From an uncultured Candidatus Saccharibacteria bacterium (GTDB lineage: Bacteria; Patescibacteriota; UBA1384; JAGGWG01; CAZAJM01): a DNA stretch of 59,079 nt. Below, piece after piece: positions 33,161 to 35,180 of this stretch. The translations under genes and the position numbers were made by a program. The stretch lies in the NCBI GenBank assembly GCA_964485625.1, contig CAZAJM010000005.1, positions 1-59,079 of the forward strand, given 5' to 3'. Under the pieces are notes generated by a model that was not told where the DNA came from, did not search any database, and worked only from the letters and a program-made list of their open reading frames with translations. Every line of letters begins with the position of its first letter. Position 1 is the first letter of the stretch.

Positions 33161-34228
33161 ATGAAACAATTACAGCCAAAAATTAAAGAAATAAAAGGTC
33201 GAGCTGAAGAGGTAAACAATTTGCTCTCTAATCCAGACAAACTGACCTCCAACCAAATTAAAAAACTCTCTAAAGAACAAGCTGCCTTAAGTGAGACTAT
33301 GACTTTGGTTAGTCAATATGAAGAAGCTCTAAATCAAATCAATGATAACCAAGAGATTATCAAGACTGAGCCGGAGATGGCAGAGATGGCTAAAGGAGAG
33401 AACAAAGAGCTAGAGAAGAAAAAATCAAAACTAGAAGAAGAGCTTATCTCCCGCTTACTAACTAGCGACCCAGATGATAGCAAAGATGTAATTTTAGAGA
33501 TTAGAGCCGGTACGGGCGGACAAGAGGCTGAGCTTTTTGCCAGCGACTTGTTTAGGATGTACCAACGCTACTCAGCTAACAACGGTTTTAAGTTTAAGGT
33601 CCAGAGTAATAAAAGAAGTGAGTTGGGCGGACTAAAGGAAGTATCTGTTGAAATTAGCGGACAAGAAGTTTATAAAAACCTTAAATATGAGGGAGGAGCT
33701 CACCGAGTGCAGAGAGTTCCAGAAACAGAAAAATCCGGCCGAATCCACACTTCAGCCGCCACTGTTGCCGTTCTGCCACAAGCCGAAGAAGATGAAATTA
33801 AAATTAAACCAAACGATCTAGAGATCGAATCATTCCGCTCCTCGGGCCCTGGAGGACAATCGGTCAACACTACAGATTCAGCCGTAAGAGTAACTCATAA
33901 GCCAACCGGAGTTAGCGTTAGTTGCCAGGACGAGAAGTCTCAGCTGAAAAACAAAGAGAAAGCCTTAAAAATTTTAAAGACCAAGATTAAAGAACAACAA
34001 GCTAAAGAGAAACAAGAGAAAGAAGGAGAGGCCCGAAAGATGATGGTCGGTAGTGGAGATAGGAGCGAGAAAATACGAACCTATAACTTTCCTCAAAACA
34101 GAATCAGCGACCACAGAATTAACTTTACCACACATAAACTTGAGCAGGTCTTAGACGGCCAGCTAGGCATCCTGATTAAAAAACTTCAAGAAGAGGACCA
34201 GAAACGCAAACTAGCCCAAATTTCTTAA
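33161..34228 (+). CDS. prfA: peptide chain release factor 1
   Basis: EIRAGTGG, HRVQRVPETE (PxT), GPGGQ. Confidence 0.96.
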   Translation: MKQLQPKIKEIKGRAEEVNNLLSNPDKLTSNQIKKLSKEQAALSETMTLVSQYEEALNQINDNQEIIKTEPEMAEMAKGENKELEKKKSKLEEELISRLLTSDPDDSKDVILEIRAGTGGQEAELFASDLFRMYQRYSANNGFKFKVQSNKRSELGGLKEVSVEISGQEVYKNLKYEGGAHRVQRVPETEKSGRIHTSAATVAVLPQAEEDEIKIKPNDLEIESFRSSGPGGQSVNTTDSAVRVTHKPTGVSVSCQDEKSQLKNKEKALKILKTKIKEQQAKEKQEKEGEARKMMVGSGDRSEKIRTYNFPQNRISDHRINFTTHKLEQVLDGQLGILIKKLQEEDQKRKLAQIS

Positions 34229-34268
34229 TATCGGAAGTAATGTCGGAAGTCGGACTTCCGATTTATTA
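34226..34268. repeat. short palindromic element between prfA and prmC
   Basis: ATCGGAAGT (34230-34238) / ACTTCCGAT (34254-34262); left arm duplicated at 34243-34250; same ends as 34604-34674. Confidence 0.75.
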
Positions 34269-34274
34269 AGCTGA

Positions 34275-35180
34275 ATGAAAATAGCTGAAATTATAGCAAA
34301 AACAACCAAAAAACTATCAGTCCCTGCCTTTGTCGATCAACCCGATCTAGAGGCAGAGGTTTTGGCTATGTTTGTTTTAAATAAAGAGAAAGAATATATC
34401 TTCTCTAACCTAGATCATGAAATTACCAAAAATCAGGTCAAATTGCTGGACAAATTGGTAGATCGCCGGCTCAAAGGAGAGCCAATTGCCTATCTTCTTG
34501 GCCGGAAAGAGTTCTACGGATTAGATTTTCTGGTCAATAAAGATGTTCTAATTCCCCGCCCAGAAACTGAATTAATTGTAGACTTAGTTTTAACTCAAAT
34601 CGGTAAAATCGGAAGCCTGCTCGCCATCAGCAAAGCTTCAGTCTTTGGCAGGCGGGGTCCGACTTCCGATTTTAAGAATATCAAAATAATTGATGTTGGT
34701 ACGGGCTCCGGCTGTATTCCCATCGCTATTGCTAAAAATACTCTAAAAGATACTAATCTCTTAATATCTGCCTCTGATATCTCAGAGAAAGCATTAAATG
34801 TAGCTAAAATGAACGCTAGAAACCATCAAGCTAAAATCAATTTTATTAAATCAGATCTACTTAGAGATGTTAAAGACAGGTTTAATATAATAACTGCCAA
34901 CCTGCCATATATACGCTCAAGTGAAGCCAGCTCAATTGCCAAGCTGATTCATCATCCTAAGCTCTCTCTGGATGGCGGAAAGGATGGCCTAGAGCTAATC
35001 AAAAAGTTAATCCGGCAATCTAGAGATAAATTAGCAACTAAAGGAGTAATTTTATTAGAAATTGCACCTGAGCAGAAAAAAGAAATATATAGATTTACAA
35101 AAGAGATATTTAAAGATCCCAAAATTAATACTTATCAGGATTTAGCCGGCATAGACCGAGTAGTTGAAATTACTATTTAA
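34275..35180 (+). CDS. prmC: release factor glutamine methyltransferase with a ~23-aa palindrome-derived insertion
   Basis: GEPIAY, LIPRPETE, DVGTGSG, ANLPY motifs. Confidence 0.93.
   Translation: MKIAEIIAKTTKKLSVPAFVDQPDLEAEVLAMFVLNKEKEYIFSNLDHEITKNQVKLLDKLVDRRLKGEPIAYLLGRKEFYGLDFLVNKDVLIPRPETELIVDLVLTQIGKIGSLLAISKASVFGRRGPTSDFKNIKIIDVGTGSGCIPIAIAKNTLKDTNLLISASDISEKALNVAKMNARNHQAKINFIKSDLLRDVKDRFNIITANLPYIRSSEASSIAKLIHHPKLSLDGGKDGLELIKKLIRQSRDKLATKGVILLEIAPEQKKEIYRFTKEIFKDPKINTYQDLAGIDRVVEITI
34604..34674. mobile_element. MITE/RPE-like palindromic element inside prmC
   Basis: 12-bp perfect terminal inverted repeat TAAAATCGGAAG/CTTCCGATTTTA; GC-rich internal stem; 71 nt including both TA ends. 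Confidence 0.7.

Follow-up and report, generated by a model that had tools for sequence, protein, structure and literature searches.

What is a long palindrome doing in the reading frame of an essential gene, and how did it get there? The gene is prmC, located in a window of 59,079 nt (the whole stretch of DNA that was analysed, contig C5) from a genome of 724 kb, 39.5% GC and 31 contigs, with a completeness of 95.7%. An intact ORF of 301 amino acids directly 3' of prfA matches the Pfam profiles PrmC_N (58 bits) and MTS (47 bits), which identifies its product as a release-factor glutamine methyltransferase. All invariant PrmC residues are retained, and the gene order rpmE-prfA-prmC-htrA-gatB agrees with that of relatives. 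The PrmC homologues carry Patescibacteria names, pointing to a CPR bacterium as host. A first-pass annotation, made from the sequence alone, had described a perfect 12-bp inverted repeat in frame in this gene, and we recover it: the arms TAAAATCGGAAG (34604-34615) and CTTCCGATTTTA (34663-34674) are 100% complementary, with 47 nt between them. Our analysis indicates that the palindrome is probably a selfish hairpin repeat of two layers, which landed in a permissive linker of PrmC and is tolerated because of that location. The features of the locus are collected in Table 1.

Table 1. Features of the prmC locus, in window positions.
Feature	Position	Strand	Remarks
prmC	34275..35180	+	ORF list, Pfam, AlphaFold mean pLDDT 94.4, synteny
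Whole composite palindrome, 69 nt, REP arms and GC core	34605..34673	+	Same build in 9 genome copies
Left REP arm AAAATCGGAAG	34605..34615	+	Equals left half of the 27-nt REP flanking the RAYT-like gene
GC-rich hairpin core, 41 nt plus G	34616..34657	+	Spans S114 to P129, both codons partial
REP loop remnant TCCGA and right REP arm CTTCCGATTTT	34658..34673	+	
Alternative 57-nt net insertion, I112-T130	34608..34664	+	Homologue linker length and Lys-Ser junction
AAATCGG, partial direct copy of left arm	34597..34603	+	Codons Q-I-G
Second, core-free REP in the prfA-prmC spacer	34226..34265	.	TAATATCGGAAG TAATGTCGGAAG TCGGACTTCCGATTTA

The nearest PrmC homologues, 50-59% identical and in conserved synteny, comprise P0002/3 (59% identity, 284 aa), P0004 (54%, 282 aa), P0005 (52%, 285 aa) and P0006 (50%, 282 aa). 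All are gapped exactly at the insert, by 17 or 19 residues. The residues that the first-pass annotation took to be added, and proposed to check by aligning orthologues, are thus absent from the nearest homologues. The linker from E99 (the Glu of RPETE) to D140 (the Asp of IDVGTG) has a length of 40 residues in this genome, whereas the most common length among 119 homologues is 19-20. A search of 5.8 billion proteins topped out at 59% identity and yielded no closer relative with an empty prmC site. PrmC of the GTDB relatives is at most 46-51% identical, with no empty site among them, and in the four other genomes that share the outer repeat described below the PrmC match is distant or absent.

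The 69 nt of the composite correspond to codons K111-F133, and their removal preserves the prmC frame, as had been stated. The GC-rich internal stem reported at the same time is present, but its pairing is not perfect: as RNA, CCTGCTCGCCA and TGGCAGGCGGG form two G.U pairs and one C.A mismatch. The RNA fold of a 91-nt stretch has an energy of -30.7 kcal/mol (z = -3.3), and one of 200 shuffles was equally stable. Three forward frames and one reverse frame of the composite are free of stop codons, and its survival in frame is therefore not surprising. The AAATCGG duplicate beside the left arm, also recorded in the first reading, is real. It looks native, judging from the IGK that P0006 has at the equivalent place.

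Listing the repeat copies genome-wide resolved two separate repeats, a 27-nt palindrome and a GC core. The first-pass claim of a dispersed palindromic family is borne out, with 36 occurrences of AAATCGGAAG in the 724-kb genome versus about 2 expected. The outer repeat is a 27-nt REP, AAAATCGGAAG-TCSGA-CTTCCGATTTT (consensus AAAATCGGAAGTCSGACTTCCGATTTT), with 11-bp arms and a loop variant GGTTACC. Twelve copies of the 27-mer are found at five or fewer substitutions; together with loop variants and nine composites, this gives about 25 REP-type hairpins in total. REP copies are intergenic except for those in prmC, valS and the RAYT-like gene, the latter two being free of the core. In prmC, the core splits a single 27-mer, leaving the left arm on one side and the loop and right arm on the other. 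The left arm of the spacer REP is accompanied by a 12-nt tandem duplicate, and the part of this REP at 34239-34265 lies three substitutions off the consensus. The first-pass annotation had overlooked that the element consists of two different repeats, one nested in the other.

A whole-genome profile search returned one Y1_Tnp (PF01797) match, with its domain at C2:91761-91994 on the minus strand and scores of 30 / 28.8 bits against a Pfam cut-off of 23 bits. The transposase ORF (C2:91497-92225, minus strand) shows an HYH (HUH-type) motif in its sequence. It is bracketed by exact 27-mers in opposite orientation, one at C2:91461-91487 (centre G), 10 nt past the stop, and the other at C2:92262-92288 (centre C), 37 nt ahead of the start; a further REP copy, ACGGAAGTCCGACTTCCGA, lies inside the ORF. 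Among the genomes of 185,579 species, just four others have the 23-nt centre of the REP. Three of these four encode RAYT-like homologues, 47-57% identical, and the gene for the 57%-identical one (L163) likewise has the hairpin on either side and within it. Comparison of the RAYT-like protein with solved structures gave no significant sequence match. Taken together, the genomic arrangement indicates that this single-copy Y1/HUH RAYT-like transposase has the REP as its cognate hairpin. The first-pass annotation had suggested looking for a matching IS630 or RAYT transposase; the former is absent, and the REP-bracketed gene described here answers to the latter. A 220-aa ORF that lies between prfA and prmC in the closest relative (L158) was also considered and proved unrelated to the RAYT-like protein.

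In REP/RAYT systems, or REPtrons, a Y1/HUH transposase gene is flanked by a palindrome (Nunvar 2010, PMC2817692; Bertels & Rainey 2011, PMC3116915; PMC3733652), and intragenic in-frame REPs have been reported in several species (Di Nocera et al. 2013, PMC3733652). The present system resembles them in its short dispersed palindrome, which is mostly intergenic, in a single-copy Y1/HUH gene bracketed by that palindrome in opposite orientations, and in occasional in-frame intragenic copies that encode extra residues. It differs in that the REP has neither the GTAG nor the CGTC tag of the Di Nocera superfamilies, in its low copy number (about 25), in its CPR/Patescibacteria host, in the hairpin copy inside the transposase ORF, and in the second, unrelated hairpin repeat that the REP carries in its loop. 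By its sequence features, the outer layer appears to be a REPtron in all respects except the GTAG/CGTC tag. The literature searched contained no paper combining RAYT or REP with Patescibacteria, and no description of a REP/RAYT-type system in essential genes of CPR. The locus thus presents an ultra-small CPR genome with an apparently recently active REP/RAYT-type system whose hairpins reach essential genes.

The inner repeat has the form CCTGCCCGCCA-N14-23-TGGCAGGCGGG (mostly N17-20), measures 36-45 nt (typically 41 or 42 nt) and occupies about 24 loci; TGGCAGGCGGG itself occurs 21 times in the genome. Five of the nine composites contain a single core (prmC, C1:5k, C1:81k, C1:83k and C3:3.6k) and four a double one (C1:138k, C3:15k, C4:11k and C6:45k), the prmC copy being the sole one within a gene. 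In all nine, the core directly follows the left REP arm, at the stem/loop junction, and in the four double composites an inverted second core directly follows the 5' arm of the first. REP hairpins make up about 0.1% of the genome, and nine of the roughly 24 core loci lie within them (binomial P ~7e-22). The cores at C1:81k and C3:3.6k are identical at 41 of 41 positions, yet their REP backbones differ in the loop; the C1:83k core is identical (42/42) to non-REP cores downstream of tRNA genes. The core has therefore been copied independently of the REP arms, and it appears from these comparisons to move on its own and to target REP hairpins. The idea that the core belongs to a tRNA gene was rejected, as ARAGORN and Rfam place tRNAs beside, not over, the cores; the tRNA-linked cores lie in downstream units that duplicate tRNA ends.

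The prmC core is identical at 40 of 41 positions to intergenic copies at C1:80991-81031 and C3:3606-3646, the one difference being a C>T at 34621. It must therefore be far younger than the split from the homologues, and its arrival in prmC appears to be recent. Known insertion sequences such as IS1397 and ISKpn1 in enterobacterial BIMEs and ISPpu9/10 in Pseudomonas putida target REP hairpins. The GC core likewise sits at a fixed position in the REP hairpin, in 9/9 composites, but it is only 36-45 nt long, encodes nothing and also nests in itself. We know of no enzyme for it. Here, one repeat occupies a fixed junction of another, with three levels of nesting, which makes this a clean case of a hairpin within a hairpin.

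The first-pass annotation had further proposed a family that builds protein loops. This is overstated: among the approximately 24 core loci and 25 REP-type hairpins, cores occur in coding sequence only in prmC and in a PEBP-family gene (C3:1086-1550). Compared with PDB 3N08, the latter has 13 additional residues (39 nt) from the core, placed between CPP and SGEHRY; the native Cys-Pro-Pro codons coincide with the core's 5' arm, CCCGCCT.

How much of the prmC palindrome was gained depends on how its ends are drawn. The first-pass figure of 23 new residues and 69 nt is probably too large; relative to the nearest homologues the net gain amounts to 17-19 residues, and an excision of 57 nt gives the best fit. 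Removal of 69 nt leaves a linker of 17 residues, which is shorter than in 118 of the 119 homologues, equal to the shortest and four residues below P0004-6. Removal of 57 nt gives QIGK|SDFKNIKIIDVG, a linker of 21 residues. The corresponding linkers of P0004, P0005 and P0006 read RIKKSQKTNLNIIDVG, IIKKSNKEKVEVIDIG and KIGKSIKKNIKIIDVG, and the 57-nt removal matches them in length and in the Lys-Ser junction. We prefer this account, in which the outer bases of the two arms would come from a native AAA|TCCGATTTT, with 15 nt added by the REP and 42 nt by the core. A third way of counting takes the 42-nt core together with a 9-nt repeat (CAAATCGGT/AAAATCGGA), which accounts for the 17 residues that separate this PrmC from P0003 in length. 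The linker DNA of P0003, the closest homologue, is somewhat similar to the REP, so the REP in prmC may in part be native or of older date. In the searched collections no true empty site was seen, which leaves the exact extent of the insertion ambiguous between 57, 69 and 42+9 nt.

We propose the following sequence of events. The REP would first have come to occupy the linker between the post-RPETE helix and strand beta-1 of the SAM-binding fold, probably using a native AAA-TCCGA-TTTT-like stretch. The 42-nt core would then have entered the loop of the REP, bringing the total net gain to 57 nt, or 19 codons; this order follows from the independence and hairpin targeting of the core. Later, the new peptide would have lost a proline through the C>T change, with a G.U pair retained in the stem. 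IS200/IS605 elements insert beside a short target sequence corresponding to the cleavage site at their own left end. By analogy with these elements and with REP/RAYT systems, the RAYT-like enzyme would act on hairpins in single-stranded DNA. The REP may have arrived by RAYT-mediated insertion beside a site mimicking the TCSGA unit, or by homology-guided copying. As its insertion site, the GC core would favour the junction of stem and loop in other hairpins, such as REPs and copies of itself. An enzyme would presumably have moved each layer. Each layer has a length divisible by three, and the frame that is read contains no stop codon, which would explain the survival of the open frame; the protein would survive because linker length varies widely across PrmC homologues. 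The insert would probably be neutral for the host.

Copying guided by homology throughout, that is, template switching or gene conversion seeded by the native arm-like stretch (AAATCG... / ...TCCGATTTT) with no transposition, is conceivable, although we consider it somewhat unlikely. The native prmC of P0006 reads GGT AAA TCG ATC..., which is already near the left arm, and the 57-nt model itself requires a native AAA|TCCGATTTT. Partial tandem copies of the arm lie beside several further REPs (C1:5060, C1:81k and 34226-34249). In valS, a REP 19-mer occupies native codons and encodes GAEVRLPI with the length unchanged; it presumably adds no residues relative to E. coli ValRS, and such a REP suits a conversion-like process better than simple insertion. 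Together with the native Cys-Pro-Pro codons under the core arm of the PEBP-family gene, with its insert of 39 nt, the valS case favours some role for short homology. On the other hand, no empty prmC site is found among the relatives, the microhomologies of 6-9 nt could equally reflect the target choice of an HUH enzyme, and the sample comprises three coding cases only.

A one-step origin appears unlikely to us. Here, a ready-made composite of REP arms and core cargo would have been mobilised by the RAYT-like enzyme in the manner of a MITE with 11-bp terminal inverted repeats. The 69 nt do make one continuous hairpin, and prmC, C1:81k and C3:3.6k share a core subtype that, as a single core, is found only inside REPs. 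Furthermore, a single complex architecture is common to the four composites with double cores, which implies that copying as a unit has happened for at least some composites. However, the three near-identical cores sit in different backbones (loops TCCGA, TCGGA and TTA), and one further REP contains a core that is also found, without any difference, outside REPs; cores and backbones therefore reassort. The short linker left by the 69-nt removal also argues against this origin. Prokaryotic MITEs, such as Correia elements (reviewed in PMC10969869), are similar in being small and non-autonomous, in having terminal inverted repeats and in being able to sit in frame in genes. The prmC element differs from them in having neither a target-site duplication nor a DDE transposase, and in that what look like terminal repeats are a single REP hairpin, divided into its two halves by the cargo.

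A native, lineage-specific PrmC loop, a functional RNA (pause site, attenuator or RNase site) or an assembly artefact joined at a repeat are each hard to reconcile with the data, and we regard this group of explanations as very improbable. Linker length does vary in many homologues, but the near-identity of the core to intergenic copies rules out an independent native origin. A stable hairpin followed by UUUU might also act at the mRNA level; Rfam, however, contains no family that matches the palindrome or the GC cores (nearby matches are only tRNAs and one group I intron), and a consensus scan for terminator-like sites called none at the prmC element. As for an artefact, both flanks are collinear with the prmC homologues, the frame is intact, and a typical read exceeds the 69-nt repeat in length. 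The IS630/Tc1-derived MITE with TA duplication, proposed in the first reading from an element that starts and ends with TA, is already contradicted and retains hardly any credibility: the search for DDE_3 (PF13358) found none in this genome and was positive in five control genomes, the flanks of other 27-mers (AC/AG, AC/AA, TC/GG, TT/GT, CT/GT) show no conserved TA, the arms belong to the hairpin found on both sides of a Y1 transposase gene, and the T and A at the ends of the palindrome are merely one extra chance base pair.

We return to the two-layer repeat and its effect on the protein. An AlphaFold2 model of PrmC from a 119-sequence alignment has a pTM of 0.90, with the mean pLDDT given in Table 1. 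The block-mean pLDDT is 80 for residues 111-120 and 59 for residues 121-130. In the model, the insert extends helix 96-121 and continues as a low-confidence coil, while strand 136-141 and the rest are confident. The fold of PrmC is thus predicted to be kept, with the insert forming a helix extension and a floppy loop. The C>T at 34621 changes Pro to Leu in the predicted helix extension. This single event may represent an amelioration of the new peptide and, with it, prmC offers a small, dated example of a new peptide derived from selfish DNA.

Rickettsia palindromic elements (RPEs) are 100-150 bp long, are confined to Rickettsia and add a surface peptide of about 20-50 residues while the fold is kept. 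They are said to have been described by Ogata et al. in 2000 in frame in essential genes. The likeness to RPEs drawn in the first-pass annotation holds for the effect on the gene: a palindromic repeat lies in frame in an essential gene, adds a surface peptide and leaves the predicted fold in place. There is probably no sequence relation, the CPR host and the absent Rfam match setting the element apart, and nearly all copies are intergenic and accompanied by a candidate transposase. The prmC element works like an RPE in effect but is not an RPE. RPEs are also mentioned in PMC3733652. Other bacteria already provide examples of palindromes lying in frame within genes. The novelty of the present case lies in its CPR host, in a REP without the tag and, most of all, in a second, cross-phylum hairpin repeat that is nested at a fixed position.

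Exact 11-nt arms of the core occur at more than 117 loci across phyla, from CPR to Desulfobacteria, Gammaproteobacteria, Bacteroidota and Actinomycetota. A literature search on the arm sequences returned no paper on the GC core, the only matches being irrelevant eukaryotic ones. In a sample of 22 inspected CPR core loci, three (L037, L053 and L088) again lie inside an outer hairpin, unrelated to the core, with runs of A and T on its flanks. We tentatively suggest that the GC core could be a protein-less mobile element of several phyla that homes to the stem/loop junctions of hairpins (REPs, terminator-like hairpins and itself) and builds Russian-doll palindromes. Microhomology between arm and target would open coding sequences to it, prmC by way of the REP and the PEBP-family gene by way of the Cys-Pro-Pro codons, and its copying would depend on an as yet undescribed enzyme or repair pathway. 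With these data, the target rule of this widespread hairpin becomes testable.

The PrmC linker itself appears to have received palindromes repeatedly, in no fewer than four lineages. Palindromic inserts at this position should be masked in alignments used for annotation and phylogenetics. In a relative of the same order (L008), PrmC has a 9-residue extra loop at this place, and no palindrome was detected in that loop. Palindromes unrelated to the one described here occupy the same linker in three other CPR lineages: one has 23-nt arms that are 87% complementary (L007), another has 29-nt arms that are 86% complementary (L172), and the third contains nested perfect arms of 12 nt and 11 nt (L173).

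The GC core, a 36-45-nt GC-rich hairpin repeat distinct from the 27-nt REP palindrome of this genome (G000), also lies in frame in a PEBP-family gene (coordinates of all features are collected in the table). By comparison with PDB 3N08, it contributes 13 extra residues (ATTESGDVGHGPP), placed between CPP and SGEHRY, and the native Cys-Pro-Pro codons coincide with the 5' arm of the core. The REP itself is represented in valS by a 19-mer encoding GAEVRLPI. Relative to E. coli ValRS, the length is unchanged, and the valS 19-mer looks like a case of overwriting and not of insertion.

A REP that lacks the core and whose left arm is repeated in tandem is located 340 nt upstream of the composite (REP plus core) in prmC, and similar partial arm duplications are found beside the copies at C1:5060 and C1:81k. 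In the closest relative (L158), the spacer corresponding to this REP-bearing one is occupied by an extra ORF, for which no Pfam family is on record. This ORF and the RAYT-like protein are unrelated. Three other CPR lineages have unrelated GC-rich palindromes in their prmC genes, again in the linker that joins RPETE to the GTGSG motif. This linker exceeds 24 residues in about 20% of 119 homologues, with a maximum of 89.

Repeats also lie between the genes of the uvrC-uvrA-uvrB region. REPs have been described within and around excision-repair genes of other phyla (Di Nocera et al., PMC3733652).

Around tRNA genes, structured units follow two tRNA-Arg genes and a tRNA-Leu gene, each unit terminating in a copy of the 3' end of the preceding tRNA. 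The insertion point of the GC core in these duplicated 3' ends follows TTCGARTCC. A duplicate of the 5' part of tRNA-Asp (ctttaaaccac...taagctacagcccc), adjoining that gene, is split by a double GC core. A match to the group I intron family, at 52.3 bits barely over the gathering score of 50, falls between tRNA-Val and tRNA-Leu(UAA), outside all ARAGORN-called tRNAs.

At more than 117 loci (among them L026-L105), the 11-nt arms of the GC core are present unchanged around a loop of 14-26 nt. Among the hosts are CPR groups, Desulfobacteria, Gammaproteobacteria, Bacteroidota, Actinomycetota and Chloroflexota, as well as an isolate (Roseomonas sp.), an unusual breadth for so short a repeat.

Repeats and other features in G000 (contigs C1, C2, C3, C8 and the window) and in other genomes (L007, L158, L172, L173)
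Feature	Position	Remarks
PEBP-family gene with in-frame GC core	C3:1086-1550 (L149:1086-1550)	core at 1367-1404
Core-free REP with tandem 12-nt copy of left arm	window 34226-34265	within 46-nt prfA-prmC spacer
REP 19-mer in valS	C2:71820-71838	valS ORF 70486-72573, minus strand
uvrC-uvrA-uvrB region	C1:79789-85550 (L145)	
Composite, uvr region	C1:80979-81043	
Plain REP, uvr region	C1:81080-81106	overlaps uvrA stop
Second composite, uvr region	C1:83637-83700	overlaps uvrB stop
Structured units after tRNA genes	C1:93568-95700 (L146); C8:16200-17100 (L155)	~150 nt each
Duplicate of tRNA-Asp 5' part	C1:52985-53125 (L144)	
Group I intron match, Rfam RF00028	C8:16563-16793 (L155:1564-1794)	minus strand
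Extra ORF between prfA and prmC	L158:2124-2786	220 aa, minus strand
prmC-linker palindrome	L007:2075-2146	
prmC-linker palindrome	L172:647-717	
prmC-linker palindrome	L173:576-673
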